DNA of 64,000 nucleotides from Raillietiella orientalis (lineage: Eukaryota). The DNA lies in NCBI GenBank assembly GCA_036172245.1, contig JAYWIR010000098.1, positions 124,001 through 188,000 of the forward strand, read 5' to 3'. Under the pieces are notes generated by a model, which saw only the letters and a list, made by a program, of their open reading frames with translations, was not told the origin of the DNA and searched no databases. The translations under genes were made by a program, and so were the position numbers. Shown here one piece after another: positions 5,466 through 55,145 of this stretch (the first letter of the stretch is position 1; the number at the start of each line of letters is the position of its first letter).

Positions 5466-7482
5466 TTCTCACTCGTGGAAGCCGGGGCTTTTATTATTTT
5501 AAAAAACCAAAATTACAATTTATAATTGCAGTCGATTGATTTTTCATTGTTTTTGTGTTCCTGACGCAAAACATTTCCGTATTGTTTTGCACTCGCTTAC
5601 CGACTTTGGTGCCGGTAAGGCCTACTTCACTCGCGAAGAGGACGCGAAAAAGGAAAAAAAATACATAAAAAAAACAAGAAATACGCCTGGGAGATATTGT
5701 TTATGAAGAGGGAAAGAAAAGGGAAGGGATCACTGTGCGTCGAGGGGAGGCCTCAGCATCTGGTTCCGGATGCGAACAAGTGCTGCCAGGATTTTCCTAA
5801 GCCGGTGCCAACGAGAAGCCTTCTCCATGGGGATGACCACCCAGTGGATGGCATTCCAGCTGCTGTGGCCTCTTATCGACGCGTTCCACTTGTCCGATAT
5901 TCCTCGTATGCAGCAGAGAACTGCAACATACGCGGCACCTGGCAGGGATTTCCGTATCAAGAGGCGACGTAAAATGTTTTTAGGGTCGCCCACCGCTACG
6001 TTTATGGCCGACGAGAGTCGATCCCAAGTTCGGCGGAGGGCAACACATTCGATGAGTAAGTGGGGGAAGGTCTATCTTTCCCCACACTCTGTACAATGGG
6101 CATCCAATCTCTCAATGTCCAGTGAGACAGGCGTGCTCTGCTCAAAAGTCCCCAATGGATCACAAGCAGCGCCGTCTCCTGCCAATCCAAAGGGAGGGTG
6201 CCACTGTCCCAAGACGCCGGGGCCACTTCACCTCCTCCGGAGCCATGCTCCGCAGCTCGTCCCAGCGCACAATTCTATTTAACCGGAATGTCGGGGTTGT
6301 AGCGTCCGCTAGTTCATGGGACGTCCACGCCTTCATTGGTTTTTTCCTGCCTCCTATGAGGCACCACACTTCGCAACAAGCGTCCTCTTGGCTGTCCCTG
6401 GCTTTTATAAAAGAGAGCAGCACGGGAACAACGGGGATGAATGCGGCCTACAAAAGCTTTTGTGGGTTAGATACGATCTCCCGCAGGGGCTGGCCAGCGT
6501 TCCTGCCTCAACGTAGGGTGCATTAGTCCACCGCGCTAAAATCCTTGAGCCTTGCCCACGGGGAAACGGACTCCTGGAGCCAGGTAGTCCAGTTTGTCAG
6601 GCTGCAGGAGATCCACATGTTTCTCCTCATCAGGGCCAGCAATTCACGTAGCTGTGAACTACAATCGTACAGTCCGAAGTCGTTGCCTACGGGGACTGAA
6701 GTCAGTCCATCGCAACCGATTGCCCTGTGGGCGTGGAGTACTATGAGCGCACACCATGGTGCTGTCCAATATTTTGCCGCAAAGACAAGTTTTCCTAGTT
6801 GGAACTGACGCTCTATGCGCTCCAACGTCAGGAGACCAAGTCCACCGTCCCTGCGTGGAGTGCACATGTTCCGCACCACAGCCCGTTCCTGCAAGTAAAA
6901 CTTGCCGTCCCGGAACGGGCCAATCGCCAAGTCCACCTTTTGGAGACGGTCGCAACGGGCTTCTGCAGCGCAGAAGTCCCCCAACGGAACGCCCAGGTAC
7001 TTAAAGTACCCGCCCGTGGGGATCTCCAGGCGGATCCAGTCCGACCGTCCTGCCCGCGACGAGTCCGGAGAAATGATTGACGACTTCGCCCTGTTTACCT
7101 CGAAGCCCGTCCCACGGTTCAGCAACTCAAAGAAATCTTCGAGCGCCGATGCCGGGATGGACCCGGGAAGCAGAAGCAGAAGGTCGTCGGCATAGGACGA
7201 CAAGTCAGGCGTGCCGGGACATGAGCTCGGCAGGGTTGCCAAAGTCTCCCTGTATGCTGTCGGCACCAACTCAAAGTAGATGAAGAGCAGGGGGCTCTGG
7301 CTGTCACCCCACCGGATGCCGCGACAAATTGGCACGCCGTACACCTGCCGGCCGCTGAAATTGATGTTAATTAGCGCAAAGCGCCAGCAGGAGCGAAGGT
7401 ACACTAGGAAGACGGCCGGAAATCCCAAGCGTTCCAGGAGCTCCAAGAGGAGCACCTGGTCGACACAATCGAAAGCTTTACT
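5466..7482 (-). mobile_element. Element G1: 3' part of ORF2 (RT to CCHC) plus 3' UTR, cut at KAFD by E1
   Basis: ORFs 6523-7455 (YADD, KYLG), 6002-6226, 5730-5993; 3' end AATAAAAGCCCCGGCTT..GTGAGAA at ~5466-5495. Confidence 0.9.
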
Positions 7483-7483
7483 T

Positions 7484-8576
7484 CGCTTAGAGCGGACGTG
7501 TTTCCTCGTTGCATCTTGTGCCGGGAACCGTCCCTAGGTGTAGGCTTTGTGTGTAGGGGTGGTCGATCAGGCAGCAATGACTGACACGACCAGCAGTGCC
7601 TGTCAGGGGGCGGTGGCAACGTCGCCTCCTGAAGAAATGGAGTGCCAGGTGGCGGAGGCAACGTCGCCTCTAGAAAAGTTGGAGTGCCAGGAGGCGACGG
7701 CAACATCGCCTTTAGTGGCGAAGGAGGTAGTGGCGTCCGCCCCCACACAACCGGTCCCCTCGGCAGCGCGGGCGTAAAGCGCCGTTGTGTCGGCGCCATC
7801 GCCTGCAGCCGCGGCGGAATTGTCGGCCTATGTGGAGGAGGGGCATAAACCCTCATTGTTCTACAAGGTAGGCTATCTATATTCTTTAGAGAGCGCACGC
7901 GCCATTTTGAAGGGGATGCGCGCTCTCTATGTTAAAGAGGAGGAGCTCTGCGCTACGACCATTCGTAGCGGGGGGCAGTACGTAGAGGTGATCTGCAAAC
8001 ACGCTGATCTGGCCCAAAGCCTGCTCAAAACCATCGTGGTGATGGAGACAAGCAGGCTCCTTCCTATTACGGCGGACCACAGTATGGTAGTCCACCTTTT
8101 AGGAGTTACCGCGCGGATGCGGAAAGAACAGTTACGCGCCGCGTTGGGAAAAGAAGGCACGGTCCATGCAGTATGGACCAAGCCTAGTCCTTACGAGGAC
8201 TATACCACAGTTTAGTGCGGCCTCACAGCTGCCCGCCTAACCGTTTATGAGGGCTCTACCCTCCCCCACAAACTGGTTGTCGGCGGAGTAAGCGTCGACC
8301 TCTGGTACGTAGGGTAGCCCAAATACTGTGGCTTCTGCAACACGTAGGGACACCTCCGAAGGAGGTGCCCAACGTAAAGTGCCAGGTATGCGGGACAATT
8401 GGCCCCACGAGGGAAGTGTGCCCACAATCCGCTGTGCGCGTGGTTTCCGCGAAGAACTTAAAAAAACGCGCGCGGCTGCTACAGTAAAGTCTGGCGGCGA
8501 AAGCTGCCGCTCAACCTGTGCCACCCACGCTCATGGTCCCGGCGGCAGCCGACACCCCGGCAACGAATGCCGAAAC
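7484..8576 (+). mobile_element. Element E1: 5' fragment (5' UTR plus disrupted ORF1) of family E
   Basis: Starts CGCTTAGAGCGGACGTG; ORF1 AAAELSAYVEEGHKPSLFYKVG matches element E (~47,140-47,200); knuckle remnants at ~8325-8420. The 3' boundary is approximate. Confidence 0.85.
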
Positions 8577-9599
8577 GATCGACAAAAGCGGTCAGGTGCG
8601 GTGAGATGCGGCAAACCTGCGCCGGTGCCGCACGCGTTTTTGGGTAGCTCCCGTGAGCGAATCCAAGAACAGTTCCTGGAAGTGTGGAAGTGCGGACGTT
8701 GGAAGGCAGAAATGCTTGAAGACGCCCCAGTACGTGCGAAGGGAGACGTGAGGCCTACGTCTCCCCAGCCTAAGGATGTGGGGTCATGCCCCACCACAAA
8801 ATCAGCTTCCGCCACCCTGGCGAGGGCGTGGAACAAGGTGGCCGCGGCGGCTCCGCCGGACGTAACGGACGAAGTGCAGCCCTACATAAAGGAGGGCTAC
8901 AACCCTGCCCTCCTCTACAAGGTAGGAAACTTATATTCTCCGCTTACAACGCGGAAATTTGGAAACGCCATCCGTAAGATGGGAATCTCTGAAGAGGAGA
9001 TTCTTTGCTTCTCGATTCGGAGCGGCGGGAAGTTCGCGGAGCTGATTTGCAGAGATGCAGCGCTCACACACAAACTTCTCTGTACGCCCGTTCTGTTCGA
9101 AGGACGGAATCTCCTCCCACACACGGTGGATCACTCTATGGTGATCCACCTCACAGGTACAACGGTGCAGATGACCGAGGAAGCCATTCGCACAGAAATC
9201 AACAAGTTCGCGGAGATATACGCGATGTAATCGAAGCCCAACGCCTTTACTTATCGAGGCGCATTCAGTGGGCGAGTTACCGCACGGGTAACTCTCCGCG
9301 AAAACTAATAACTTCCCCACAAGCTGTAGGTCGACCTCCCTGCAATTTTGGCGCCTCCCAGCAATTTTCTGTGATCCCTTCCCGGCCCTCCAAACTTTTT
9401 TTTGTGGTTTGTTTTTCTCTTTTATTTTATTATTGTTCTCTCCCCCATCCTACTTCACTGCCGAGAAGAGCCAAACCGAGCTACGTCCCGGTGTCCCGGC
9501 AGTTCCGGTATTGCGTGGCCGTCAGTGGGGCCCTGTACCTTCGTTCTGTATTGACTGTTGAAATGTTTTTAATAAACGTCCCCGCGTATCCGGGTGGCA
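8577..9599 (+). mobile_element. Element I: ORF1 N-terminal half fused to a 3' terminus (internally deleted)
   Basis: ORF 8328-9230 has YIKEGYNPALLYKVG...SIRSGG; at ~9330-9350 it jumps to the ORF2 end, TGATCCCTTCCC, U-rich UTR, AATAAA (9571) and terminal hairpin. Confidence 0.75.
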
Positions 9600-10279
9600 T
9601 CGCCGAATCCCTGGGGCAGACGTTGCACAGGGAACTGTTCGCAGAACTCCCGGACCGAGTCCTTAAATAGGTCCCAATCCGCGAGAATCTGGAGGGTGAC
9701 GCCTCGCAGGAATTCGCGAAGATGTTGTTTCGCTCCTGACAAACGCGTCCAGTTCCATGGCATACGCCAATCCCTGGATGGCGGTCCCTTGTCGCGCGGG
9801 CGCATCTCGAATAATAACCGGGAATGGTCCGACAGCGTCGATCCAAGTGTCCCTCGTTTTCCGACCCGTGTGCACAGGTCTTCGTCCAGGAAGACGTGGT
9901 CCACGCTGCTGAACATCCCGCTTATTTCTGTCAACAAGTTGTGCGCGCGCGTGGCGGCGTACAACTCGTTGATCGCGTTCCCCTGTGCTCCGGGCTGATC
10001 TGAGAGAAGACGGACGTTGAAATCCCCTGCTATCAGATGCGCCTTTCGCACGTCCGCGTCCACCAGCCATTCGCGCTTGATGGTTTCCAGTAACGCGTTG
10101 CGCTGCTGGTATCCCTGTTTACTGCTAGGAGCGTACACATTGGTGGCGATAAGTTCGATCGAATCGGACCATCTGAGAATCAGTTGGCCGATCCGTCCGT
10201 CGTCCCCAAAGCGCACGCCGTTCACGGCCGCGTTAATAGCTGACTTTAGAAAGAAAGCGACTCCACAAGTGATGCGGCA
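9600..10279 (-). mobile_element. B-like ORF2 fragment (APE endonuclease to linker)
   Basis: ORF 9569-10324: GVAFF, NVYAPS, HLIAGDFN, VDHVF, SDH, FPVQRLPQGFG. Confidence 0.9.
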
Positions 10280-10726
10280 GGACTCCCTCAGTCCAGCTGT
10301 AGCCCTGGCAGCACTTTGCTGCATTCGTGGTATAGTGGCGGCCTATAGTGATGCCGAAGATGAAGACTGCATCGTGAGGGATGTCATCGAGTATGCTTCT
10401 CGCTTCCTGCAGAGAGCTACCCGGTGGACCCATCTAGGAAGGATGAAAAAGGAACTAGAAGGCATCCTGCCAAGAATAGGCCCTCCCAGCAGTTTTCTGT
10501 GATCCCTTCCCGGCCCTCCAAACTTTTTTTTGTGGTTTGTTTTTCTCTTTTATTTTATTTTTGTGTTCTCCCTTATCCCCCTCTACTGCTGAGGAGAGCC
10601 ACACCGAGCTGCGTCCCGGTGTCCCGGAAGTTCCGGTATTGCGTGGCCGTCAGTGGGGCCTTGTACCACGTTCTGTATTGACCGTTGAAATGTTTTTAAT
10701 AAACGTCCCGGCGTATCCGGGTGGCA
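10280..10726 (+). mobile_element. 5'-truncated 3' terminus (ORF2 end plus 3' UTR) of a B-related element
   Basis: LAALCCIRGIV..., stop at 10502; 10480-10738 is nearly identical to 9352-9611. Confidence 0.85.
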
Positions 10727-10838
10727 TCGCCGAATCCCCGCTGTGGAGAGCGGACGTGCTTTTCCTGCGCTCCGCCTGCGTGGAAAGCGAGTGTTTTTTC
10801 TTCTTGAGTGATTTGTGCGTGCAAATCGTCGGTGTCCG

Positions 10839-12709
10839 ATGGCAGCGTCGCCAGAGGACACCGCGATGGAAGTAGGCGTGGAAGATGCTTGTTCGCCCCC
10901 ACAGCCTACTGGATCAGGGGCATCCGCCCCGGAATCGTCCCCGGCGACGCCGAGGTCATGGAGCGCCATGGTGGCAGCGCCTAGCGTTGAAGCCATGGCC
11001 GAGATGGAAGCCTACAAGAAAGCGGGGTATAAACCCTCGCTAGTCTACAAGGTAGGGAACCTTTTCGATGGACGAACTGCACGCGCCCTTACGAATGCGC
11101 TGCAGAACGCCAATATCTTCGAAAAAGATCTTGACGGCCTCTGCGTCCTCAGCGGCGGGCAGCGGGTCGAGGTGGTATGCAAGGATATCACCTTGGCCCG
11201 ACGCCTGATCACCAACCCGCTGATCGTTGATGGTCGCAAGATCTTGCCGGGGACGATGGACCGCTCTGTGGTGGTCCATCTCACTGGGATCTCCAGTCGC
11301 ATGACTAGGTCAGCGGTTCGAGAACAGTTACAAAAGCAGGGAGAAGTGCACGCGTTGTGGCCGAAGTCCACGATTTTCCGAAGCTACAATAGCCTTTTCG
11401 GAGGTCAAGCTGCGGCGCGTATCACACTAAAAGAGGGTGGTGTAATTCCCCAGAAGCTGGAGGTCTGCCAAGAAGCGGTGGACCTCTGGTACGTGGGGAA
11501 ACGTCAATTTTGTGGCTACTGCAATGCAGTAGGGCATCTACGAAAAAGGTGCCCGAACATTGTGTGCCACCTATGCGGCGAAAAGGGTCACGTTCGGCGC
11601 GTGTGCCCCAAGCGCCCCACCCCGGTGCCCCCTGCCGCCAAAAAGGCGCAGGGAAAACGTGGGAAGCTGGTAGAAAGACCAGCTCGCGAAAATGGCCGTT
11701 CCCAACTGCCAGCCTCCCTTCCTCCCGTACAGACGTCGGAGGAAAGAGCTCCCGTGAACGCGAAAATGGAGGAGGGTTGGCAGCTGGTTCAGGCCAGAAA
11801 AGAGAAAAAAAAGAAAGTGATGCCAGAAGAAAAGTCGGAGAAGAACACTGCCGGCAACAAGAAAAAAGCCGCGCCACTTTCAAAAAAAAAACAACTCCGC
11901 GAATGCTCGGTGGCACTGGAACGCTTAGCCGTTCCTGCCGAGTCCGCCCGCGCCAATGTTCGCGGAACAGCTGATGCGGACGCTATGAATACTCGCGTGG
12001 ACCAGCCCATTCTACGTTTAGAGGGTGAGACGCGAGACTCGCGCGCTGACAGCCAGGACGCCGCGCTCGATAATGTCGCGGAGGAGCCCGCGGCAACGTT
12101 CGCCGTCAGCGATGACGCCGCGCTCGATAAGGTCGCGGAGCAGCCCGCGGCAACGGTCGCCGCTGGCGAAGACGCGGCCTTCGAGAAAGCGGCGGAGGAG
12201 CTCGCAGCAACGCTCGCCGAGCGCGAAACCCCGTCGCGCAAGGGCGTACGCAGGTCGGCACCGACGAAGAAGGCCCCCGCAGGTGAGTGCGACCTGCGGG
12301 CCGGAAGCGGATCCTCCTCCTCGGAGGCACCTTCCAGGAAGGCGGGACGCAAGTCCCAGAAACCCAGGAGGCGTCTCCCCTCCACCAGCGAGGAGGAGAA
12401 AGAAGCGGCAGCGTGGGAATCCCGGAGGGGGAATACCCACGCCCGGAAGCCGTCGAGTCGACCACCCCCATGGAGGAGGGTGAGCAGGGGGGTGAAGTCC
12501 TCCCTGCACTCGCGAAACCTGAGCAGCCCGAATCCATGGAGGAGGGCGAACAGGTAGGCGCGACTTCACCTGCGGGTGATCCGGTCGACCCGCCGGCACC
12601 GATGGAGGAGGAGGAACAGGTGCCTTCAGTACCTGTATCCCCTCCCCCTCCACCTAGCGTCCCGCCCCAGCAGGTGGCGGACGCCGCATCGCCGTTTTCC
12701 CAGGACTAA
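10839..12709 (+). pseudogene. Element B ORF1 (2 CCHC knuckles, long disordered C-terminus), one apparent frameshift near 12,400
   Basis: ORF 10815-12557 (CGYCNAVGHLRKRC, CHLCGEKGHVRRVC) continues in ORF 12287-12709. Confidence 0.9.
12057..12218 (+). repeat. 57-bp (19-aa) tandem repeat x~3 in B ORF1 (DAALDKVAEEPAAT..)
   Basis: GACGCCGCGCTCGATAA.. units; the same repeat is in B' at ~33,634-33,795. Confidence 0.85.
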
Positions 12710-13747
12710 CACCTGGGCTCGCCAGTCGCCGTGGGATTCGCGCGGCCATTTGCAACGTCAACGGGCTGCGCGACAACGGCAACAGGCGAGATACGGCCGA
12801 CACCCTGCGTGAGCTCGACCTGGCGCTGCTGCAGGAGATCCACGTGATCACCGCGGCAGACGCCCAGGAAATCGAGACGATCGCGGGAGGTCGGTTGTAT
12901 TGGCGATGCGGCCTCCGCAACACCTGCGGGGTCGCGTTCTTCATGAAGCCGGTCATCGACGCTGCCGTAAAGGGCGTGCGGTTTGATGACGACGGTCGGA
13001 TCGGTCAGCTGATTCTCAGCTGGTCCGACTCGATCGACCTAATCGTCACAAACGTGTATGGCCTCAGCGGCAAACAGGGGTACCGCGACCGCACCAGGCT
13101 GCTGGAAACCCTGAAGCGCGACTGGCTGGCGGATACCAATGTGCGAAAGGCTCACCTGATAGCGGGAGATTTCAATCTCCGCCTGCTAACAGGTGAGCCG
13201 GAAACACAAGTGAACGCGATGAACGAGTTGTGCGCCGCCATGCGCGCGCGCAACTTGTTCACGGGTGAGAGGGGAATGGTCCACAGCATCGACCACGTCT
13301 TCCTCGACGCTGTCCTGTGTTCACGCGTCGGCAAACGGGGGAGGGTTGTGTCGACGTTGTCGGACCATTCCCGGCTAATTTTCGAGATGCGTCCTCGCGA
13401 CAAAGGACCGCCATCCAGGGATTGGCGTCTGCCGGGGGACTGGACGCTAATCTCAGGTGCGAGTGAACACCTTCGCGAATACCTGAGAGGCGTCACGCTC
13501 CGGAATCTCCATTGAAACCTGGTTGCGCCGGGACGTTTATTCTCACGAATAAACCTATACAATCTGTGACTGGACCAGTAGTCCAGCCACGCCCTGGAAA
13601 GATATAGCTTACCGGGCTACTGGTGCGCAGACCGGCGCGGTCGACCTCGGCAGCAGAGGGGAGGGGGAACGAAACAAAAAGAAAACAAAAAATAAACAAA
13701 AATCAGGGAGGGAGCGGGAAGGGATCACAGTCTGCTGGGAGGGTCCG

Positions 13748-16700
13748 TCATCCTCTGGAGGATGCCAGCAAGCTGTTTCTGCTTGTGTGGTTCCAGATGG
13801 GGCCATCGCGTCGACATCCTGTAGAAACGGGCAACATACACGTTGGCATCCCTGTCGCTGGATCCTCCCGTCGCTTTGCTTCATGCCACGACGATCTCGC
13901 GTAGGCAGCCCAGGGCTGCAAGCGAGGCCGCTGGAGGCAGGGCGTCACGGACGAAGTGGGGGCGCAAAGCGTCTCTGGAGTTGCCTCCGGGGATCCCCAG
14001 CGCTGCGGCACAGCGTTCCCACAAGGGACGGAGGGCAACACAATCCACTAACAGGTGGGGGAGGTATTCCCTCTCCCCGCACCTGACACAATTAGGGTTG
14101 ACACCCCCCCGCGTCCAGTGGTGTCGGCGGGCGTTGCAAGGAAGCCCCCAATGCAACACCATCAGTGCCGACTGTTGCCACTTCATGGGGAGGGTGCGCG
14201 AGTCTATGAGCACCGGGGGCCACTCGAGATGTTCCTCTGGAACATCTAGTAGCTCTCCCCAGCGCAACAGTATATTTGGGGTGGTCCTCGGGGTCGCAGC
14301 GTTGGTGAGCTGACCCGTTCTCCAATCCCCGATCTTCTTTGCCCTGCTGGCGATCTTGACAGTAACCTCCCATTGTGGCGCGACGTCGCTGCCCAGATGT
14401 TCCCGTAGGGTAGGCAGTACCGCAGCAAGGGAGGTTCTTTGTGCCCACGCTCTCCTTCGGAAATTCTCGATGATTTCTCGTAGCGTGCGGCGGGCATGCG
14501 GCCCGAACAGAGCTATTCGCTCATGTTGCGGGCTCTGCTTCTGAATCATCGCCCACGTGCGGACGGTTTCCTGCAACCAGGCAGGACCGTTCGCGGGGCG
14601 TACGAGGATCCGCGCCGAGTTGTTCTTCACGAGCTTGGCCGCCCTCCGAAGTTGAAGTCCACAGTGGCAGATGGGGCTTCGGAGTGCAAAGTAGGACGAG
14701 AGTCCCTCATTGCCGGTGGTCCGCTCGACGAGGAGACGTGCAGGGAGGCACCAAGGGGTGCACCAATTTTCTGCCATAAAGGCAACAACTCGGAACTGGA
14801 GCTGTAGCTCCAGCCGCTCCAACGTCAGGAGGCCCAGACCACCATCCCGACGAGGAGCGCACAAGTCCGAAAGACGGACTCGGGGCCTCCCTCTGCCCCA
14901 AAGGGCGATCCTCAGGAGGTCCTTCGTTCTCTTCTTTGACTCCGCTAAGGGGGGGCAAACAAAAAGCAAGGGGCGAAGGAGATAGGCCGCAAACGCGTTC
15001 CACGCCGCAACCCGTTCATGCAGGAAGAACCTGCCGTCCTGGAACGGGCCGATCGTCTCCTGAGCCTTCTGAAGGCAGCCGGACCACGCTTCCGCAGGGG
15101 AGTAATCCCCCAACGGCACACCAAGGTACTTGAAGTACCTCACCGTGGGGATCCCCAAACGGACCCAGTCCTGCTGCCCTGCCCACGCCGCTCCGACTGG
15201 CATTACGGACGACTTCGCCCTGTTCACCGTCATTCCTGTTCCCCGACTCAGCAGGTCGAAGAACTCCTCGACCGCCGCAACCGGGGTGGACATAGGCAGC
15301 AGCAGCAGAAGGTCGTCCGCGTACGCCGAAACCGCAGGCGTACCGGGACAATCGCACGGCAGGTGCGCAAGAGTCTTCCTGTACGCTCTCAGCACCAATT
15401 CGAAATAGGCGCTAAAGAGCAGGGGGCTCAGGCTGTCTCCCTGCCGTATGCCGCGTCGCACCGGTACTCCGTGCACGGTTTGCCCGCTGAAAAGAACATT
15501 AATGAGCGCGTCGCGCCAGCTGAAGCGCAGGTAGGCCAACAAAGAGGCCGGGAAGCCCAAGCGTTCCAGAAGCTCCAGCAGGAGATTCTGGTCGACGCTG
15601 TCGAATGCTTTACGCAAGTCGACAGCGACCGCAAGGGCTCCCTTCCCCACCCGACCGTTCCGTCTCTTGCCAACGGACGCACCGGAATTCCGGCTGCTCA
15701 ATAAGCCCCTTCCTTGTTGGAGCTCTAACCATGTGGAAGTGTGGAACAGGTTCGCCTCCATGCTCCGCCCGGGAACAGCATAAGTCTGTTCCGGGCTGAT
15801 GAAGATGTTGGCAACCCGTCCCAGACGCTCTGCCCACATCTTGGCTATCAACTTGGCGTCCGCATTCACTATTGTGATGAAACGCCAGTTGTTCATGCTC
15901 CTTAGGTCTCCTCCCTTCGGGAGGAGCCGAACCTTTGCTGAACGAAACGAGGTGGGAACGTCACCTGTTACACGGATCAGCAAGGTGAGCTGATGTACCA
16001 GGGGAGTAAGCTGAGCCGCGAAAGTTTGGTAAAACTCCGCGGGCAGGCCGTCCTCCCCTGGAGCCTTCCGCCTCTTGAGCTTTCCGATGGCCGAGAGGAT
16101 CTCGTCCATCGTGAAAGGCTCGTCGAGGCTTCTTTTCTCCTCCGCCCCGATCGCTGGAGCACCTTCCGGAAGCAGAAGTCGTGAGACGTCCCGCTCCGGA
16201 GGCGCCCTGGCGTACAGGAAGGAGTAAAATTTTCTGACTATCCCGCGTTTCTGAGCGGGAACCGAGTGCTCCCGGCCCTGATCGTCCAGCAAGCTGGCCG
16301 ACCCGGATTGCCAGGCTTGCCTCTCGGCTCCCGCTCGATACTCTGCTAACCTGCGCATGTCGGGGGTTCTCGCGTAACGTCGGGCCTGAAGATAGCACCT
16401 TTCGTTACGCGGCCCCTCCCCAAATACCGCAAGTAGGCGATGCAGGGGGAACTGATCGCAGAACTCCTGGACCGACCGCTTGAAGCGGTCCCAGTCCTGA
16501 AGTGTCTGCATCCTGAAGCTCCGAATAAACGCGCGGAGGTGCTCCGCCGCGTCGGGAATTTCAGCCAGTCCCCTGGCAGACGCCACGCTGACGAGGGGGA
16601 GCCCTTGTCGCGCGGACGCACTTCGAACATGATCCGACCATGGTCCGACAGCTCGGATGGTACCTTGCCGCGCCTGCCCACCCGAGAGCATAGGTGCTGA

Positions 16701-17305
16701 TCAAGGTACACGTGATCGATGCTGCTTTTCATGGCCGTGTCCCCGGCCAACAAGTTGCGCGTGTTCATTTCTGCGCACAACTCGTTGACGCGGTCGTTCA
16801 GTGTATCCGGCGCACCTGAAAGCAGGCGCAGGTTGAAATCACCTGCGATCAGGTGCGCTTTGCGAACTTCTGCATCGGTCAGCCAATCGCGTCTCAGGGC
16901 AAGGTAGAATTTCCTTCTTGCCTTCGCCCTCAACGCGTTGTTTCCGCTAGGAGCGTATAGGTTGGTGACGACCAGGTCGATGGAGTCGGACCAGCTGAGA
17001 GTCAGCTGACCGACGCGACCTGCGTCATCGAACCGAACGTCCTTTATTGCGGTTTCAATGGCTGGCCGGAGCAGGAAGGCGACACCGCTTGATTTCGCGG
17101 TGCCGCAACGCCACAACAGCCGCCCACCCGAGATCCGTTCGATCTCCCGGGCTTGATCTGCGGAGATTACGTGGATCTCCTTCAGCATCACCAGGTCGAA
17201 GGATGCCAGGGTGGCGGCCACGTCACGCCTCTTGCCGTCGTCGCTTAGCCCGTTCACGTTCCAACAGGCGATCAGAAGACGACGGCGAGAGGCGATTCCC
17301 GGCAT
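13748..17305 (-). pseudogene. Element C ORF2; longest intact stretch in the window (936-codon ORF), frameshifts near 16,560 and near the C-terminus
   Basis: ORFs 16346-17305 (WNVNG, GDFN, SDH) and 13881-16691 (KAPGEDG, DLRKAFD, QGDSLSP, YADD, CVRCG..H..C). Confidence 0.93.
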
Positions 17306-39700: not shown

Positions 39701-40349
39701 GGTTTCCTGCACGATAGCGGGAAAAACCAAAATCCTTGGCGCCTGGAAGACGAGTGAGATGGCGGACGCCGCTACTCCTCGTGTTACTGCAAAGGGACTC
39801 CTCCGGTGGGCAGAAGAACTTGCTGTCACCCCCGAAGAACTTGTAGTCCCTCCACAGTGTATTGACAGTTCGCTGCTCCCCCTTGCTTGGAAACAAGCCG
39901 TGCTGCTTTTCGTTCACTGGGGTTTTAAGTGCAACGAGCGTTGGCATCGTGACTCCGGGGGACTTGCGTCTGCGAACTGCGTTCGGTGCGGATCGACGGA
40001 GTCGATTCCGCACCTACTTCCGGACTGCGGTGTCCTACATGGACTGTGGCGTAGGCTGGCAACAGCATTTATGCATCCCGTGGACACCGCAAGAGACTTG
40101 CTGCGACGATTCTTCACGCAGAGCGGGCTGTCACGCAGCGCAAGGATTGCAACCATCGGTTGCATACGCGCGATAGTTTCCGTCCGCCAGGCGCTAGAAA
40201 TCAACGGACAGCACCAAGAGGTAATCAGCAAAGCATCCTTTTACATGAAAGCATCCGCTAGATGGCCTCATTTGACAGAGAAGACAAAAAGGAATCTCGC
40301 CGCAATACACCGCCGGTTTACACACCCTCAGCAACGGCCAACCCGTTGA
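36758..40349 (+). pseudogene. Element D' ORF2, disrupted
   Basis: ORFs 36758-37900, 38048-38242, 38227-39612 (DLHKAFD, YADD), 39585-40349. Confidence 0.92.
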
Positions 40350-41912: not shown

Positions 41913-44900
41913 TCTTCACCCATATTTCGCCGGGGCGTTTATTGTAAAATAAACATTTACAAAGACGTGCGGTGGCTGGTCCATTGCTCCAGCCACGCAC
42001 GAAGAAACACATAGCCTGCCGGGTCACCGGTTCGCAAACCGGTACGGTCCACCACGGCAGCAGTGGGAAGGGGGAAAAACAAAAAACAAAACAAAAAAGC
42101 AAAGAAAAGTTGGGAGGGTAAGGGAAGGGATCACAGTTGCTGGTGGGGCCGTTGCATCCTTTGCAGGATGCCGGCAAGCTCCTTCTGAATTCCTGGATGC
42201 AGGTGGGGCTATCGGAACGTTTTCCTCAGGAACTGGGAGGCTGGCTGGATGACACCCTGGTCGCGTTGTCCTCCCGTAGCCTTGATCCAAGCGGTGATGA
42301 TCCCGCGTAGGCAGCACAAAGCTGCTAACGAGGCTGCTGGCCGAAGGGCGTCGGCAACGAAGAGGGCTTTCAGTGCGTGCCTGGGGTTGCCGTAGGGGAT
42401 TTCGATGTCCGCGTTAAAGCGAAACCAAAGGGGCCGAAGGTCAACACAATCCACTAGCAGGTGGGGGAGGGACTCCCGTTCCCCACACCTGACGCAATTG
42501 GGGTCCACCGCACCCCAGGTCCAGTGGTGTCGGCGGGCGTTGCAGGGGAGTCCCCAGTGCTGCAACAGGAGAGCCGACTCCTGCCATTTCAAGGAAAGGG
42601 CGGAAGTGTTCATGAGCACCGGGGGCCACTTCAGATGTTCAATGGGAACATCGAGCAGCGCGCCCCAGCGCAGAAGTTTATTGGGAGGCGTAGTCGGGGT
42701 CGCAGCGTCTGTTAACTGGCCCGTCTTCCACTCTCCTATCTTCTTCTCCTTTCCGGAGATTGTAACTGAAACCTCCCACTTTGCCGCAACATCGCTGTCC
42801 AGATCTTCCATCAGGGAGGGCAGCGCAACAGCGAGGGGGGCTCTTCCTGTTCACGCTCTCTTTTTTGGATCCTCAAGGATCTCGCGTTGCGTTCAACTTC
42901 TGTAACCCCAAAGAGGAACCTTCGTTCCTGTTGGGAGCGTTGCATGCCGAACTGTCCCCACGTTCGAACGGTTTCCTGCAACCAAGCACTACCGTTCAAC
43001 GGCCGACAGGTGAGCAATCCTGGGTTTTTCCGATACTGCGCAGCCACCCTCCGTAGCAGGAGTCCGCATCGGTTGACGCGGCGACGGAGTGCAAGAAACG
43101 ACGTCAGTCCCGTCTTGCCGGTGGCTTGCTGGAGAAGCAGAAGTGCAGGGACGCACCAACAGGTGCACCTTTACTCTGGAACGAGTGCCGACAAGCGGAA
43201 CTGGAGTTGAAGCTCCAGCCGCTCCAGTGTCAGCAGGCCGAGACCACGACCCCGACGAGGAGCGCACAAGTCCTTTAAGCGGACTCGGGCCCTCCCGTTG
43301 CGTAAAGGGCGATACGGAGGAGGTCCTTTGTCCGCTTTTTAATCCTCTCTGTGAAGGGGCAAACAAAAAGCAGGGAACGGAGGAGAGAAGCCGCAAACGT
43401 GTTCCAAAACGCGGCCCGTTCAGGCAGGAAAAACCTGCCGCCTGAGAACGGGCCGATCGCCGTCTCTACTTTTGGAGGCAGCCGGACCACGCTTCCGCAG
43501 GGGAGTTGTTTCTCAACGGTACACCAAGGTACTTCAAGCACCTCGTCGTGGGGATCCCCAGACGGACCCAGTCCTGCTGCGCGGCCCACGCCGCACCAAC
43601 TGCCATCACGGACGACTTCGCCCTGTTCACCGTAATTCCGGTTCCCCGATGCAGCAGGTCGAATAACTCCTCGACCGCCGCAGCCGGGTTGGACATAGGG
43701 AGTAGCAGCAGAAGGTCGTCCTCATATGCTGAAGCATCCGGCGTACCGGCACAGTCGTGCGGCAGGTGCGCCAGAGTTCCCCTGTACGCTCTCAGTACCA
43801 GCTCAAAGTAGGTACTGAAGAGGAAGGGGCTCAGGCTGTCTCCCTGCCGGATTCCACGCCGCACCGGCACGCCGTGCACGGTCTGCCCGCTGAAAGTAAC
43901 ATTGATGTGCGTGTCGCGCCAGCAGGAGCGCAGATAGGCCACTAATGAAGCCGGGAAGCCCAAGCGTTCCAGAAGCTCCAGAAGGAGATTCTGGTCGACG
44001 CAATCGAATGCTTTCCGCAAGTCGATTGCGACCGCAAGGGCTCTCTCCCCCACCCGACCATTCAACCCCCTACCTGCGCACGAACCGGAATTCCGGCTGC
44101 GCACCAAACTCCTTTCATGTTGTAGCTCTAGCCAGGTGGAAGCGTGGAACAGGTTCGCCTCCATGCTTCGCCCGGGAACAGCATATGTCTGTTCTGGGCT
44201 GATCAAGATGTTGGCAACCTGTCCCTGACGCACTGCCCACACCTTAGCCAGCAACTTGGCGTCCGCATTCACTATTGTGATCGGACGCCAGTTGTTCATG
44301 CTCCTCAGATCTCCTCCCTTAGGGAGGAGCCGCACCTTTGCCGAACGAAACGAGGCGGGAACGAAACCGGTTTCGCGTATCAGCAAGGTGAGTTGCTGTA
44401 CAAATGGGGTAAGCTCAGACGCGAAAGTTCGATAAAACTCCGCGGGCAGGCCGTCCTCCCCTGGAGCCTTTCGGCTCTTGAGCTTTACGATGGCCGATAG
44501 AATCTCGTCCATCGTGAAAGCCTCGTCGAGGGTCTTTCTCTGCTCCTTCCCGATCGCTGGAGCGCCTTCTGGAAGCAGGAGTCGTGAAACGTTCCTCTCC
44601 GGAGGTGCTCTGGCATACAGGGAGGAGTACTAACTCCGCAGCAGGCCGCGGATTTGGGCAGGTGCCGAGTGCTCCTGGCCCTGATCGTCCAGAAAGCTGG
44701 CCGATCCGGACTGCCAGGCTTGCCTCTCGGCTCCCGCTTTGTATTCCGCCAGCCTGCGGATGACGGGGGTCCTGGCGTAACGACGGGCCTGCAGGTAGGC
44801 TCGTTCGTTACGGACCCCGGTCCCAAAACCCGTAGGTCAGCGGTGCGGAGGAAACTGGTGGCAGAACTCCTGGACCGACCGCTTGAAGCGGTCCCAATCC

Positions 44901-47479
44901 TGGAGTGTCCGCAGACTGAAGCTCCGTATGAACGTGCGGAGATGTTCCGCCGCGTCCGAAAGCTTCAGCCAGTCCCCTGGAAGACGCCAGGCTGACGAGG
45001 GGGGGCCTTTGTCGCGCGGATGGATCTCGAGGACTAGTGGGCGATGGTCGGACAGCTCGCACGGTAACTTGCCGCGCCTGCCCACGCGAGGGCACAGGTG
45101 CTCGTCAAGAAACACGTGGTCAATGCTGTCTTCCATCCCCGGTGCATTGGCCAACAGATTACAGGTGTGCACCGCCATGCACACCTCGTTGACCAGGTCA
45201 CGCTCGGGATTCTGCTCATCTGGTTTCAGGCGAACGTTGAAATCGCCTGCTACCAGATGGGCATTCCACACGCCTGCTTCGGTCAGCCAGTCTTGCCGGA
45301 GGGCAAGGAAAAACTCTTTTTTTCGCCCTCCTGTTCATCAGGTCCTTGCCGCTCGTTGCGTACACGTTCGTGACGATCAGATCGATCGAGTCGGACCACC
45401 TGAGAGTCAGCTGGCCGACACGACCGTGAACGTCGAACCTCACGCCCCGAGCCGCGGCCTCGACGGCTGGCCGAAGCAGGTAGGCGACACCGCAACTTTT
45501 CGCTCTCCCACACCTGTACCATAGCCGCCCTTCGGAGATCCGTTAGATCTCTTGCGGTTGTTCTGCAGAGATCACGTGGATCTCCTGCAGCAGCGCAAGG
45601 TCGTAGGACTCCAGAAGGGCGGCCATGTCTCGTCTCCTGCCGGCGTCTGTCATGCCGTTCACGTTCCAAACGGCGATGCGCAGACGAAGGCGGGAGGAGA
45701 TTCCCGGCATTACTGCTGGGAAGATTAAGGTGTGGGGAAGCCCTCCTCTTGCGAGGCGGGCGGGATGTCCATGGGGGTTTCGGCCTTCTCAGGCACCTGA
45801 GGCACCTGTTCGGCCTCCACCCCGTCCATCCCCTCCGTGTCCGTGCGTGGGAGTTCCTCGGGGGAGGGGTCCCGAGAGTTTCACACGCTCATGGCACCCT
45901 CGCTTGCGGAAGCCATCTGTTACCCTTCGACGGGGGAGACGAGCTTCCTTGGCTTTGTGGACTTACGTCCAGCCTTCTTGCGCGGTGCCGTAGAAACGGA
46001 GGCTGCGCTCCCGGTCTCCACCTCGGGGTCGAAAGTGGGGGACTCCTGAGGGGAGGCCGGACGCCTTACGGCCTTCTTGCCAGCCTTGGAGGGTTCTGGC
46101 TGCAACGAGGCTTCCAGCTCCTACGCGGCTCCCGCGAAGGCTACGTCATCGATGGTGGTGTCGATGACGGACGCCGCCGCCGGCTCGCTCCCCTCGCTGT
46201 TGACTGTGTCAACAGAGGGGAGGTCGTCGGTAGCGGAGAGTTCTTTCCGGCAGCGTTCGGCAACATCGAGAACGCGTTCGACAACGACGCTGCACTCTTT
46301 AATTATCGCGCTACCCTGCTCTTTCTTCTTCTGTTGGTAGACGATTTTCTTTTCCATCCTCCTTTCCTTGTTTGATTTTTTGGCTGTTGCCACTTGCCAC
46401 TCAGTCTCCTGGCCGGCTCCCTCAACTTTTTCGGCGTTGGTCGCGGGGGTCTCGGGTGCGGCCTGGGTCTTGGGCGCGGGTGGCACAGCCTTCGCGGAAG
46501 CTTTCGCCGCCAACTTTTTCTGCAGCAGCCGGGCGCGTTTTTTAAGGTTTCTCTTGGAAACCACCCGCACTGCTGCTTTTGGGCACACCTCCCTCGTGTG
46601 GCCCATTGTGCCGCATACTTGGCACTGCACATTGGGACACCTCTTTTTAAGGTGGCCCGACGTATTTCAGAAGCCACAGTATTTCGGCTTCCCCACATAC
46701 CAGAGGTCGACGGTTTCGCCTTCGAGCACCAGTTTGTGGGGAAGAGTGCAGCCCTCCCGAACGGTCACGCGCGCAGCAGTGAGGCCGTGTTGCAGCCCCG
46801 TGTAGTCCTCGAAAGCACTAACTTTTGTCCACTGCGCGTGGACCGTTGCGAACTGTTCCAAAGCGGCGCGAACCTGTTCTTTGCGCATTCGCGCGGTTAC
46901 GCCTAACAGGTGGACCACCATTTTGCGGTTCGCCGTAGTGGGGAGGAGACTGCGCGTCCCCATCACAACGGGGGTTTTAAGCAGTCGTTGCGCCAGTTCT
47001 GCATGTTTGCAGATGACCTCAACGTACTGACCCCGCTGCGTATGGTCATAGCGCTAAGCTGCTCCCCTTTCACATCGAGAGCGCGCATCCCCTTCGAGAA
47101 GGCGCGCGCGCTTTCTTAAGAAAATAAATTGCCTACCTTGTAGAACAATGAGGGGTTGTACCCCTCCTCCACATATGCTGACAATTCCGCCGCGGCTCCA
47201 GGCGATGGCGCCGACACAACGGCGCTTCACGCCCGCGCTGCAGCGGGGACCGATTCTGTATGGGCGGTTGCCCCCACCTCCATCGCCTCTGGGAGCGACG
47301 TTGCCGCCGCCCCCTGGCTCTCCATCGCCTCTGGGGGCGGCGTTGCCGCTGCCCCCTGGCCATCCCTGCTGGTCGCGTCAGGCATCGCTGCCTGATCGAC
47401 CACCGAACCACACGACGCTTGCACTGGGGGAGACTTCCTGGCACGAGAGGCCCCGAGAAAACCCTTCCGCTCTAGAGCG
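41913..47479 (-). mobile_element. Element E: full-length (~5.6 kb) with 14-bp TSD
   Basis: CACAAGGCGTTCGA at 41899-41912 and 47480-47493; ORF1 ~45710-47440 and ORF2 42131-45710 (YEDD variant), both disrupted. Confidence 0.95.
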
Positions 47480-49614
47480 CACAAGGCGTTCGACTGTGTA
47501 GACCAGGAACTTCAATTGGAGCTCCTGGGTCGCATGGGCTTCCCACCCTCCCTGATTTCCTACCTGCGCTCTTGCTGGCGGAATGCGATGATTACCGTCT
47601 GTTTCAGTGGACAGAAGGTGTATGGCGTGCCGGTGCGGCAGGGCATCAGGCAGGGCGATAGCCTCAGCCCCCTGCTTTTCATCACCTTCTTTGAGTTGGG
47701 GCTGAGAGCGTACAGGGTGACTTTGGCCCAGTTGCCGAGCTCGTGCCCCGGCACGCTCGCCGTAGCAGCGTACGCCGACGATGTTCTGCTCTTGTTGCCA
47801 ATTTCTACCCCGGCAAAGGCGGTGGGAGACTTCTTCGATCTGCTCAGCCGCGGGACCGGACTGCAGGTTAACAGGGCGGAGTCGTCGGTTGTGCCAATAG
47901 GTGCGGCGTGAGCAGGGCAGGAGGACTGGGTCCGTCTGGGGATCTTCACGGAGAGGTGCTTCAAGTACCTTGGTGTGCCGTAGGGGGACTGCTCCCTAGC
48001 GGAAGCGTGGTCCGGCTCCCTCCAATAAGTCGAGACGGCTATCGGCCCGTTCCTGGAAGGCAAGTTTCACTTGCCTGAACGGGCCTGCGGTTTGGAACAT
48101 GTTCGCGGCTCCTCTTCTCCGTTCCCTGCTGTTTGTTAGCCCCCCCACAGAGAGGATCAAAAAGCGGACGAAGGACCTCCTTCGTATCGCCCTTTGGGGC
48201 TACGGGAGGCCCCAAGTCCGCCTGAAGGACTTGTGCGCTCCGCGTCGGGACGGTGGTCTCGGCCTCCTGACATTGGAGCGGCTGGAGCTGCAGCTCCAGT
48301 TCCGGATTTTGGCACTTGTGTTGGAGTTGTGGTGCACCTGTTGGTGCGTCCCTGCACGTCTCCTCCTTCAGCAAGCCACCGGTAAGACGGGACTTACGTC
48401 GTTTCTTGCACTCCATCGAAGCCGCATCAACCGATGTGGGCTTCTGCTACGGAGGGTGGCTGCGCTGGCAAGGAAAAATCAAGGATGGATCACCTGTCTC
48501 CCCGCGAACGGTAGTGCCTGGTTGCAGGATACCGTTCGTATGTGGGGACAGTTCGGCATGCAACCCTTCCATCAGGAACGAAGGTTTCTGTTTGGGTGTT
48601 ACAGAAGTTGCACGCTCCGTGAGGTCCTGGAGGATCCTAAGAAGAGAGCGTGGTCAGGAAGAACCTCCCTCGCTTCTGCGCTGGACTCCCTTGTGGAACA
48701 TCAGGACAGCAATGTTGCGGCGAAGTGGGAGGTTACATTTAAAATCTCCGGGAAGGAGAAGAAACAGAGAGAGTGGAAGACGGGCCAGCTAACTGATGCT
48801 GCGACCCCGAGTACGCCTCCTAATGGACTTCTGCGCTGGGGAGCGCTGGTGGATGTTCCGATTGAACATCTGAAGTGGCCCCCGATTCTTATGAACACTT
48901 CTATCCTCCCTTTAAAGTAACAAGAGTCGGCATTCCTGTTGCAGCACTGGGGACTCCCCTGCAACGCCCGTCGACACCACTGGACCTGGGGAGCGGTGGA
49001 TCCCAATTGTGTAAGGTGCGGGGAACGGGATTCCCTCCCTTACCTCCTAGTGGATTGTGTTGCCCTTCGGCCCCTTTGGTTCCGCTTTGCCGCGGCCATC
49101 GGTATCCCTTGCAGCAACCCCAGGGAGGCACTAAAAGTCTTCTTCGCTTCCGACGCTCTGCGGCCTGGGTCCTCGATAGCAGCCTTTTTCTGCCTTCGTG
49201 GGATCGTCGCCGCCTGGAGCACGGCGACGGGAGGACGTCGCGATCAGGAAGCCATCCAGTGCACCTCTGAATTCTTGAGGAGGGCGTCGCGATGGCCCCA
49301 CCTAGATGTTCACAACAAACAAGACCTTGCCAGCATCCTGAGAGGGATGATTCGGCCCCAGCAGCAACAGTGATCCCTTCCCGTTCCCTCCCACACTTTG
49401 TTTGTTTGTTTGTTTGTTGGTTAGTGTTTTTTTTTTTTTTTTTTTGTTTCTCCTTTTTACCCTGCTGCCTTGGTGGACCGTACCGGTCTAGAAACCGGTG
49501 AATTGGCAGGCGCCGTAATTCTTAGCTTCTGGCTGGAGCATTGCCACAGCCATTAATAATTTGTTTACAAAGTTTATTTTTTTAATAAACGACTCGGAGA
49601 ACTCCTGGTGAAAA

Positions 49615-49787
49615 TCGAATGTTTTGCGCAAGTCGACAGCGACGGCGAAGGCTCCCGCCGATTCCGCCCCACCCTCTACCGGGTCTCTCTGGTCAGAGGG
49701 GTGCTCGAGGCTCCCTTGACCGTCCTGTGCAACGCGCTGTTCCAACTGCCACCATGTGCTGGCGAGGAGCAGGTTGGCTTCCATGGT
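49615..49787 (-). mobile_element. Short F-family RT fragment (TMEAN...AVDLRKTFD)
   Basis: ORF 49488-49784 matches the N-terminus of ORF 30812-31648. Confidence 0.85.
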
Positions 49788-52107
49788 TTTTCACCCGGGT
49801 AAGCCGGGGCTTTTATTACTAAAATTTTGAAATTACAAAATTTCGTAACAAAGTCTATCTTGTTAAAATTTTCGTTTTTACGACGTCAGAAGTTCAGATC
49901 AGAAGTTCAGTAGCACTTATCCTTACCGACCAGGAGGTCGATAAGGTCCTTCACTGGCGCCGGGACGGGAAAAATAAAACAAAACAAAAACAAAAAAAGA
50001 AGAACGTCCGCAAAGCAATGATTTTGGGTAGCGGGAGCGAGGAAGGGGATCGCCGTGCGCCGTGAGCAGGCCTTTGCATCCGGTTTCGGATGCGAACAAG
50101 TGCTGGCAAATGTTTTTGAAGTCGGCGCCAACGGCACGCTTTCTCCAAGGAGATCGCTGCCCAGTGAATGGCATTCCGGCTGGTCCTTCCTCTCCTAGAC
50201 GCGGTCAACTTCTCCAGGATACCGCGTATGCAGCAGAGCACTGCTACGCTCCCGGAGGCTGGTAAGCCGTCTCGCGTCAGGAGGCGTCTAGATAAATTTT
50301 TCAGGTCAACCTCCGGAATGTTGAGGATCAACGAGAGTCTGTCATACATTTCGCGGAGGGCAACACACTCCAGAATCAAGTGAGGGAAGGTCTCCCTTTC
50401 CTTGCACTCTGCACAACTAGCATCCACATTCCCCGTTGTCCAGCGAGACAGGCGTGCTCTGCTTAAAAGTCCCCAGTGGAGCAGAAGCAACGCCGTCTCC
50501 TGCCACTGCAGGGGAAGGGTGGCGTTGTCCCATGACGCTGGGGGCCACTTCACCTCCTCCGGAGGTATACCGAGCAGCGCGCCCCATCGTATAAGTCCGT
50601 TCGGCGGGACACTCGGGGTACTAGCGTCCGCTAGTTCCCTCGGCGTGCACGCCTTCAGTGATTTTTTCCTGCCTCCGATGAGGCAGGACACTTTCCACGA
50701 TGCCTGTTGGTGGCTGTCCCGAACTTCCCCGAAGGAGGGTAGCACTGGGGCAAGGGGGGTTAAGGAAGCCCACAGAAGTTTCCGTGGGTTGGAAACGATC
50801 TCCTGGAGTGGCTGACCAGCGTGCCTTCCTATGCGGAGGCAGGAGAAGTCCCCATCGCTGGTGCCATTGATCTTCGCCCATGCGGATACGGACTCCGGAA
50901 GCCAGGTAGTCCAGTCCGCTGGAATGCAGGAGATCCAAGGGTTGTCTCTCATCAGAGCAGCCAAATCCCGCAGCTGATAACCACAATGGTTCAGGCTGCG
51001 TTCGTTGGCTACCAGGATTGAAGTCAATACGAAGCAGCCGGTTGCCCTGTGAGCAAGGAGTCTTGCTGGTGCACACCAGGGTGCTGTCCAAAACTTTGCC
51101 ACAAGGGCAAGTTTTCTCAATTGGAGCTGTCGCTCCATGCGCTCCAACGTCAGGAGACCAAGTCCACCGTCCCTGCTTGGGGCGCACAAGTCTTTGAGCC
51201 GGACGCGGGGCCTCCGGTTGCCCCAGAGGGCTTTACGTATAAGTCCCTTAGTCCGTGTCCTTATTTAGTAAGGTGTAGGGCACACAAAAAGTAGGGGGCG
51301 AAGGAGGGGGGCCGCGTAAGCGTTTCATACCGTGGCCCGTTCCTGCAAGTGGAACTTGCCGTCCCGGAACGGGCCGATCGCCAGCTCCACCTTTTGTAGA
51401 CGGTCGGACCAGGCTTCTGCAGAGCAAAAGTCCCCCAACGGAACGCCAAGGTACTTGATGTACCTGCCCGTGGGGATCCCCAAGCGGATCCAGTCAGACC
51501 GTCCGGCCCTCGTCGAGTCGGTGAAAAGCAACGACGATTTCGTCCTGTTTACCTGGAGGCCTGTCCCACGGTATAGCAACTCGAAGAAATCCTCGAGCGC
51601 CGATGCCGAGGTGGACCCGGGAAGCAGGAGCAGAAGATCGTCGGCATAAGCCGACACGGCAGGCGTGCCAAGACAGGAGCTCGGCAGGGTTGCCAAAGTC
51701 TCCCTGTATGCTCTCAGCACCAACTCAAAGTAGATGCTGAAGAGCAGGGGGCTGAGGCTGTCACCCTGCCGGATGCCACGACGAACCGGCACGCCGAACA
51801 CGTGGCGGCCGCTGAAATTTATATTGATGAGCGCGAAGCGCCAGCAGGAGCGCAGGTAGGCCAGGAAGACGGCCGGAAATCCCAAGCGTTTTAGAAGCTC
51901 CAGCATGAGATTATGGTCGACGCTGTCGAATGCCTTACGCAAGTCGACAGCGACCGCAAGGGCTCCCTTCCTCACCCGACCGTCCCGTCTCCCACCAGCG
52001 GACGCACCGGAATTTCGTCTGCTCAATAAGCCCCTTCCTTGTTGGAGTTGTATCCATGTGGAAGCGTGGAAGAGGTTCGCCTCCATGTTTTGCCCGGGAG
52101 CAGCATA
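49788..52107 (-). mobile_element. Element G2: 5'-truncated ORF2 plus 3' UTR
   Basis: ORFs 51325-52086 and 49951-51189 (CAECKERETFPHLILEC); 3' AATAAAAGCCCCGGCTTACCCGGGTGAAAA. Confidence 0.9.
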
Positions 52108-52147
52108 TCGAGGCTACTCTCCCTAAAGTGGCAGGAGTCGGCGCTGC

Positions 52148-55144: not shown

Positions 55145-55145
55145 G

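Follow-up and report, generated by a model that had tools for sequence, protein, structure and literature searches.

A nest of related LINEs in Raillietiella orientalis in which at least three lineages probably insert at exact sites within conserved codons of their relatives

The locus considered here is a cluster of long interspersed nuclear elements (LINEs) in Raillietiella orientalis, contained in a 64,000-nt stretch of contig JAYWIR010000098.1 (positions 124,001–188,000, forward strand; hereafter the window, to which all positions refer). With the best preserved element, C (13512–18993, minus strand), as the reference for tblastn and self-blastn, about 20 pieces of related LINEs were found to make up the interval from 5.4 to 56.9 kb. 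This interval is a nest of related L1-group LINEs that carry an apurinic/apyrimidinic endonuclease (APE) and a reverse transcriptase (RT), and in the tblastn map the APE precedes the RT on single elements. A profile search detected RVT_1 in 9 of 29 long stop-to-stop frames and Exo_endo_phos above cutoff in three of the 29. The zf-CCHC profile exceeded its cutoff in one first open reading frame (ORF1; 23.6 versus 20.8 bits), and two zf-RVT scores (22.3 and 18.2 bits) both fell under the cutoff of 27.5 bits. The APE reading frame is open in C (16346–17386, minus strand), D2 (36725–37900, plus strand), and A1 (12658–13515, plus strand). The GC content is about 55–63% at 6–56 kb and from 62 kb onward, and 40–50% at 1–6 and 56–62 kb.

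The nested copies are designated by letters and listed in Table 1, with junction positions read from exact junction prints and rulers (the 3′ boundary of F is accurate to ±3 nt). An earlier sequence-only reading of this DNA had described several LINE families, each inserted in a different conserved motif of its relatives. The junctions it named all exist, within a few bases of the places it gave, and its assignment of two D insertions to GDFN codons and of three E loci to DLxKxFD codons proves exact to the nucleotide.

Both D insertions (2 of 2 events) run in sense, follow immediately on the GDFN codons of the host, and carry an identical 8-bp duplication. The 16 nt around the D junction form an imperfect palindrome, which is identical in A1, A2, and H1, that is, in three of the eight GDFN copies, and two of these three are occupied. 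The other five copies (in f, C, E, and the two D elements themselves) differ from this sequence at 3–4 of the 16 positions, mostly synonymously, and none of them is occupied. In D’s own GDFN codons (25870–25885 and 37214–37229), four of the 16 positions differ from the target, three of them synonymously, which hints at self-immunity of D.

The E-type lineage provides three events, and all three are antisense inside the DLxKxFD codons and associated with a 14-bp duplication. In addition to E itself, which lies in A2, these are the E-like 3′ end of A2 (49614), which meets p at the same DLxKxFD nucleotide, and the 5′ end of E3 (7483), which meets F at the matching place (7469–7482). Three of the 11 DLxKxFD copies in the nest are occupied, and the five bases that lead up to the nick are common to these three and to six of the eight empty copies. 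One of the six is E’s own, so nothing suggests that E is immune to itself.

Four B-type junctions (three 3′ ends, at 9599, 10726, and 22010, and one 5′ end, at 32316) are all antisense within the PxGFxEG codons and represent three to four events; three copies of this motif and one remnant are occupied, and six are empty. The remnant, 13 nt of host sequence (10727–10739) left between g and A1, suggests that the B-type duplication is about 13 nt long and that one site has been used repeatedly. All four B-type junctions of the sequence-only reading are therefore present, two of them possibly stemming from one event (see below), and its 12-bp estimate for the B-type duplication gives way to 13 nt. 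The 8, 14, and 17 bp that it reported for D, E, and C stand, as do the orientations it described as fixed within each lineage (sense for D, antisense for the E-type and B-type lineages). The single events it listed are present, too: C in TLRNLQDW, s (its H) in KWQESALL at 52149, and q (its G2) in TMEAN at 49785.

Thirteen junction events that could be placed have a LINE host, or 12 when e and g are counted as a single one. It is conceivable that insertion is only regional, with a preference for a LINE cluster, for chromatin of a centromere-like kind, or for LINE DNA in general but for no particular sequence, and that the coincidences are due to chance or to selection by the reader. Zepp and ZeppL are on record, in the available parts of PMC8226300 and PMC3446292, as forming clusters by nesting in copies already present, and nearly every 3′ junction of the nest falls in another LINE. 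We compared the junctions with random placement, using the twelve events that can be placed on a common frame, counting e and g once, and defining a shared site as the same nucleotide ±1 in the same orientation. Seven same-site pairs were observed against 0.018 expected (Poisson P ~1e-16), and the maximum in 2,000,000 simulation runs was three. All coincidences are within one insert lineage and none is between lineages, and the duplication length and orientation are constant per lineage. This makes a purely regional preference scarcely credible, and the clustering by family that had been claimed from the sequence holds against random insertion within the window. We consider it probable that, within this window, at least three lineages insert at lineage-specific, nucleotide-exact sites in conserved ORF2 codons of related LINEs.

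The same coincidences would arise if each lineage had inserted only once and segmental duplications or inversions inside the nest had then multiplied that ancestral junction. D1 and D2 together with their flanks do form an inverted pair, which blastn aligns over both junctions (22295–28792 versus 40801–34308), e and g are 92% identical with a short host flank included, and recombination is evident in the nest. However, D1 and D2, which are mostly 92–99% alike per 100 nt (about 6% apart overall), are inserted in flanks that are only 57–58% alike on the 5′ side and 53–70% on the 3′ side, and the drop from about 95% identity inside D falls exactly at the boundaries of the duplications. The host pairs, furthermore, differ chiefly at third codon positions. 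The ratio of nonsynonymous to synonymous divergence (Ka/Ks) is 0.39 for the H1 and A2 flanks of D, with a synonymous divergence (dS) of 1.05. Among the E-type hosts it is 0.35 for F versus A2 (dS 1.06) and 0.42 for A2 versus p, and F is nearer to q (84%), which is uninterrupted at the DLxKxFD site, than to A2 (64%). Among the B-type hosts it is 0.36 for f versus H1 (dS 1.03), and G forms a separate branch of the RT tree. With host Ka/Ks values of 0.35–0.42 and a dS of about 1, the hosts must have diverged as functional elements before they were interrupted. The inserts themselves, A1 versus A2 (about 9% apart) and D1 versus D2, show ratios of 0.64–1.0, as if they had decayed once inserted. The hosts that a single insert lineage entered also fall in different RT clades. 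The recurrent junctions are independent insertions into hosts of different families; descent from single ancestral insertions is contradicted for D, for E, and for at least three B-type events, and is very improbable overall.

The inserts group in the RT tree as (D1, D2), (A1, v), (F, q, t), and (C, (E, the E-like part of A2)). E and the E-like part of A2 diverged under selection (Ka/Ks 0.36, dS 0.43) and share one insertion site, and therefore the choice of site is inherited.

Table 1 Features of the LINE nest (window positions; aa, amino acids; UTR, untranslated region)
Feature	Position	Strand	Description
F	5464–7482	−	5′-interrupted LINE, RT aa ~364–939 and 3′ UTR; host of E3 at DLxKxFD; left nest edge
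E3	7483–8575	+	E-like 5′ UTR and ORF1; 74% identical to E 46429–47482; 5′ end adjoins F at E-type site
ORF1 fragment, further lineage	8757–9335	+	37% identical to A1 ORF1; sits between E3 and e
e	9354–9599	+	5′-truncated B-type 3′ end; 3′ junction in PxGF codons of f
f	9600–10277	−	B-like fragment, APE aa 99 to RT aa ~91; 78% identical to A1; host of e
g	10279–10726	+	5′-truncated B-type 3′ end; followed by 13-nt PxGF host remnant 10727–10739
A1	10740–22010	+	Full-length B-type; pieces 10740–13511 and 18994–22010 parted by C; 3′ junction in H1 PxGF codons
C	13512–18993	−	Full length, antisense in A1 at TLRNLQDW; 17-bp duplication 13495–13511/18994–19010; empty site, A2
H1	22011–29375	−	Oldest host; pieces 22011–22434 and 28344–29375; entered by A1 (PxGF), D1 (GDFN), and G (ORF1)
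D1	22435–28343	−	Full-length D, sense, after H1 GDFN codons; 8-bp duplication 22427–34/28344–51
G	29376–32315	−	RT aa ~94–939 and 3′ UTR; 3′ end in H1 ORF1 (sense); cut at PxGF by A2 5′ end
A2	32316–49614	+	B-type; pieces 32316–34756, 40663–41912, and 47480–49614; E-like from ~48100–48280
D2	34757–40662	+	Full-length D, sense, after A2 GDFN codons; 8-bp duplication 34749–56/40663–70; empty site, A1
E	41913–47479	−	Full length, antisense in A2 at DLxKxFD; 14-bp duplication 41899–41912/47480–47493; empty site, A1
p	49615–49784	−	G-family fragment, RT aa ~313–367; 82.6% identical to G over 172 nt; host of A2 E-like 3′ end and of q 3′ end
q	49785–52108	−	F-lineage, 5′-truncated; 3′ end at p TMEAN (sense), 4–5 nt microhomology
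r	52109–52148	+	40-nt remnant ending in KWQESALL codons; host of s 3′ end
s	52149–55144	−	RT aa 73–939 and 3′ UTR; antisense to r
t	55143–56926	+	F-lineage 3′ part; 3′ end abuts low-GC non-LINE DNA; right nest edge
v	62626–64000	+	B-lineage copy from RT aa ~416; non-LINE DNA on left; runs past window end
3′ ends, examples (last ~45 nt)	40618–40662; 41913–41957; 13512–13556	+; −; −
5′ ends with shared motif	7483; 10740; 18993; 28343; 32316; 34757; 47479	+; +; −; −; +; +; −
D 16-nt target	13165–13180; 28340–28355; 34745–34756/40671–40674

A2 is of mosaic structure: the part up to ~48100–48280 shares about 91% identity with A1, and the part beyond shares about 84% with E. A2 is flanked by a B-type junction on the 5′ side and by the E-type junction with p on the 3′ side, and these are different host sites. 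Most simply, A2 is read as the product of ectopic recombination that joined a B-type element to an E-type element of the same orientation. A chimera made by template switching of the RT was considered and dropped, as flanks at different host sites fit ectopic recombination better.

A far more distant LINE, with about 25–30% protein identity to the ORF1 and ORF2 of the nest, occupies 231–4485 on the minus strand, in the lower-GC left flank and outside the nested group. Neither LINE homology nor a recognisable gene was seen between 56.9 and 62.6 kb. A search for tRNA genes found none in the window, and Rfam returned no match across its whole length at gathering scores.

The elements share their termini across lineages. 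In all 12 of the 3′ ends examined, a hexamer resembling a polyadenylation signal, a preceding A/U hairpin, and a GC-rich hairpin region are followed by a lineage-specific tail of 2–7 nt, and none of the 12 ends in poly(A). RNAalifold on the 12 ends found only a 4-pair stem with little covariation, and single-sequence folds were no better than those of shuffled sequences (z −1.3 to +0.3). A metagenome scan with the shared 3′-end pattern returned 20 loci, of which none displayed LINE homology by tblastn; these are chance matches. At the opposite terminus, a motif of about 10 nt is common to the full-length elements of four lineages, and a search of Rfam with the 5′ end of D2 gave no match at E≤1, so that no ribozyme was detected.

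These observations can be cast as a mechanism in which each lineage would insert by target-primed reverse transcription, with RT primed on the structured 3′ end. D would nick the antisense strand in the GDFN codons and enter in the sense orientation with an 8-bp stagger. The E-type and B-type elements would nick the sense strand, in the DLxKxFD and PxGFxEG codons, respectively, and enter antisense with staggers of 14 bp and about 13 nt. The second strand would be cut at a lineage-specific offset of 8, ~13, 14, or 17 nt. Going by L1 enzymes, we take GDFN to be an endonuclease active-site motif and DLxKxFD to be a motif of the reverse transcriptase. Specificity would reside in the APE domain and not in pairing between the element RNA and the target, and D would evade its own endonuclease by means of its mostly synonymous codon differences. 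By analogy with the R1 and R2 elements specific for ribosomal DNA (rDNA), the benefit would be a safe, multi-copy, self-renewing, and slowly evolving target.

Base pairing could nevertheless play the main part in setting the site. Read-through transcripts of copies that already occupy the target, as in the mechanism described for R1-type elements, would carry downstream target sequence, anneal at the nick made by a weakly specific endonuclease, and so direct a precise reinsertion. The 3′ junction of q, with its microhomology between tail and host, is of the kind that pairing would leave, all 12 of the 3′ ends have the shared structured end in place of poly(A), as in stringent-type LINEs, and C and E are 84% alike in RT and yet occupy different sites. 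On the other hand, the junction prints display no complementarity between tail and target for D, E, B, and C, with q alone having microhomology, and the fixed offsets of 8, 13, 14, and 17 nt point to cleavage determined by protein. The identity of C to E is lower in the APE (74%) than in the RT (84%), which would fit an altered specificity that lies in the endonuclease, as far as the single C event goes. We therefore regard a site choice governed mainly by pairing as unlikely. The fixed offsets and orientations would fit protein-determined cleavage of both strands, as specific cleavage of both strands is reported for the R1Bm endonuclease in the available part of PMC1919474.

A number of observations weigh against lineage-bound, LINE-confined specificity or against the events from which it is derived. 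First, the sample is one window with two to four events per lineage, and C, s, q, and G are single events that are uninformative on specificity. Second, e and g, whose 92% similarity extends through the 11–13-nt flank, may record one event and were counted as one. Third, the flanks of A1 do not match (10727–10739 versus 22011–22023). These unmatched flanks, and the two different host sites that flank A2, mean that the nest has been remodelled by recombination, in the course of which some junctions were parted from their counterparts. Fourth, C is as close to E (dS 0.42) as the E-like part of A2 is, yet it is found at a different site, so that specificity is either labile or leaky. Fifth, the RT tree places v beside A1 (100/99), but non-LINE DNA borders the truncated 5′ end of v. 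Finally, the junctions at 8576–8756, 9336–9353, 10277–10279, and 55142–55144 are not accounted for by simple insertion. At 55142–55144, s and t, both 5′-truncated, are joined head to head, and at 10277–10279 the truncated 5′ end of g meets f at APE aa ~99. Twin priming was considered for the f/g pair and dropped because the joined segments are about 2.5 kb apart in the element.

The F/q/t lineage belongs with these points. At its 3′ end (56926), t borders on non-LINE DNA of low GC content, and in the 3′ flank of F (~5464) no LINE homology was found across 4400–5620 beyond one match with E=0.17. The targets of this lineage therefore extend beyond LINEs. At either margin of the nest (5464 and 56926), an F/q/t 3′ end faces outward into non-LINE DNA, and F/q/t elements may found clusters in which the site-specific lineages settle later.

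The assembly itself was compared with run X1, which yielded 282 related contigs (30 at least 99% alike, 86 at 95–99%, and 166 at 90–95%); runs X2 and X3 contained next to no related sequence. No read or contig bridges any junction by at least 31 nt on both sides, which counts against the main reading, and the X1 contigs corroborate neither the assembly nor specificity across the genome. One related X1 contig, moreover, joins the last base of D (40662) to 45547, antisense in the APE region of E (45531–45576) and near similar palindromic arms. If real, this join would be a second kind of D target and a further point against a single exact site, with weak support from a side match of 30 nt at the 90% threshold.

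The highly repetitive nature of the region and the lack of junctions spanned by at least 31 nt on both sides are what one would expect if the nest were an artefact of assembly, made from dispersed LINE reads that had been collapsed or chimerically joined. Misassembly would not, however, yield complete elements with perfect 8-, 14-, and 17-bp duplications and matching empty sites. A weak hint in the same direction comes from X1 contigs that reach 29 and 19 nt across the two junctions of D2 and from one empty-site form that shares 8 nt and has a 21-nt side, all of which are under the bridging rule. An artefactual nest is extremely improbable.

Beyond the site-specific insertion of D, E-type, and B-type elements, a wider picture is possible, and we put it forward tentatively. 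The nest may represent a guild of sister LINEs that live almost wholly inside one another, each with an APE tuned to different catalytic-motif codons (GDFN, PxGFxEG, DLxKxFD, and perhaps TLRNLQDW, TMEAN, and KWQESALL), in which targets and attackers would co-evolve through mostly synonymous changes and the less specific F/q/t elements would seed the clusters. The sequence-only reading had gone further, proposing that sister families partition the element into target niches and disable their competitors. Partitioning is upheld in so far as the D, E-type, and B-type lineages each have an exact motif of their own, C, s, q, and G, as single events, are silent on it, and F/q/t elements are not LINE-confined. 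The disabling of competitors, itself deduced and not observed, is weakened by the B-type insertion into the B-like f (78% identical to A1) and by the target bases retained in E’s own codons. Niche partitioning combined with competitor disabling is plausible but unproven.

Among known proteins, the best sequence matches in the Protein Data Bank (PDB) are to human LINE-1 ORF2p (E=1.4e-39 for the RT and ~3e-7 for the endonuclease), and R2 proteins match at 4e-14; no R1 or TRAS endonuclease is among the PDB sequence matches at E≤0.01. A protein-database search produced one unnamed relative with 69% identity. Its other matches have at most 28% identity, the named ones being fish and plant L1-like proteins, and no green-algal protein is among the 44 matches. 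The homologue P0001 gave an Atlas cluster labelled ‘Transposon TX1...’ (score 0.88), which is a lead only.

The safe havens of sequence-specific LINEs are rDNA, small nuclear RNA (snRNA) genes, microsatellites, telomeres, and a few DNA transposons, and self-nesting LINE clusters, such as those of Zepp and ZeppL, are components of centromeres. In the Tx1 clade, Tx1L and Tx2L are found in DNA transposons, Keno in U2 snRNA genes, and Mutsu in 5S rDNA. R2 uses a restriction-like endonuclease, and R1 belongs to another clade.

Clusters that grow as elements insert into copies of their own group are common to the nest and to Zepp (Chlorella and Coccomyxa) and ZeppL (Chlamydomonas), which are described as L1-clade elements that form GC-rich clusters in this way (PMC8226300 and PMC3446292, available parts). 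As far as these parts go, there is one self-nesting family per species, the arrays consist of 5′-truncated 3′ ends, and no exact target codon is named. In contrast, the Raillietiella nest contains several diverged lineages and many full-length copies, and three of the lineages each keep to an exact target, an orientation, and a duplication length of their own. An (A)n tail is, furthermore, listed for Zepp (PMC3747384, footnote of Table 3, in the part available), and none of the 12 nest 3′ ends has one. On this ground we provisionally keep the nest apart from Zepp. Celine, a centromeric LINE of poplar, is likewise found mostly inside other transposable elements (52 of 58 full-length copies), but each copy has a unique duplication of 10–30 bp and its targeting is regional, not sequence-specific, according to the accessible part of PMC11288735.

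Closer in mode of insertion is the Tx1 clade, whose members are APE-type LINEs of the L1 group with strict targets in multicopy DNA, including transposons. In the available part of PMC4640811, this clade is described as target-specific, and transposons are named among the targets of the APE LINEs of the Tx1 and R1 clades. Sequence-specific insertion is also seen in the nest, with the differences that the targets are coding motifs of related LINEs and that sister lineages use different sites of the same host element. This last arrangement resembles that of R1 and R2, which share one conserved multicopy target, each at a fixed site of its own and with defined duplications, except that the target of R1 and R2 is a host gene and not a mobile element. 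The logic of such a target, conserved, present in many copies, and harmless to use, is set out in the same part of PMC4640811.

Searches of full text, with most subscription journals, Repbase Reports, and the first Zepp papers outside their scope, found no account of several sister LINE lineages that each use a different codon motif of their relatives, and the available parts of PMC9940879, PMC11005252, and a 2025 CENH3 preprint say nothing on exact sites. If confirmed genome-wide, the arrangement would provide (i) a mechanism for the growth and confinement of LINE-only clusters, (ii) a natural set of related APE endonucleases with known, differing targets for decoding APE specificity, and (iii) a testable case of parasite-on-parasite co-evolution through synonymous codons. 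Self-nesting is known from Zepp, and sequence-specific insertion from Tx1- and R1-type LINEs; what appears to be new here is the presence of several lineages, each with a different site in the codons of its relatives. The nest would link safe-haven targeting with self-nesting, the elements’ own conserved codons being the multicopy target.

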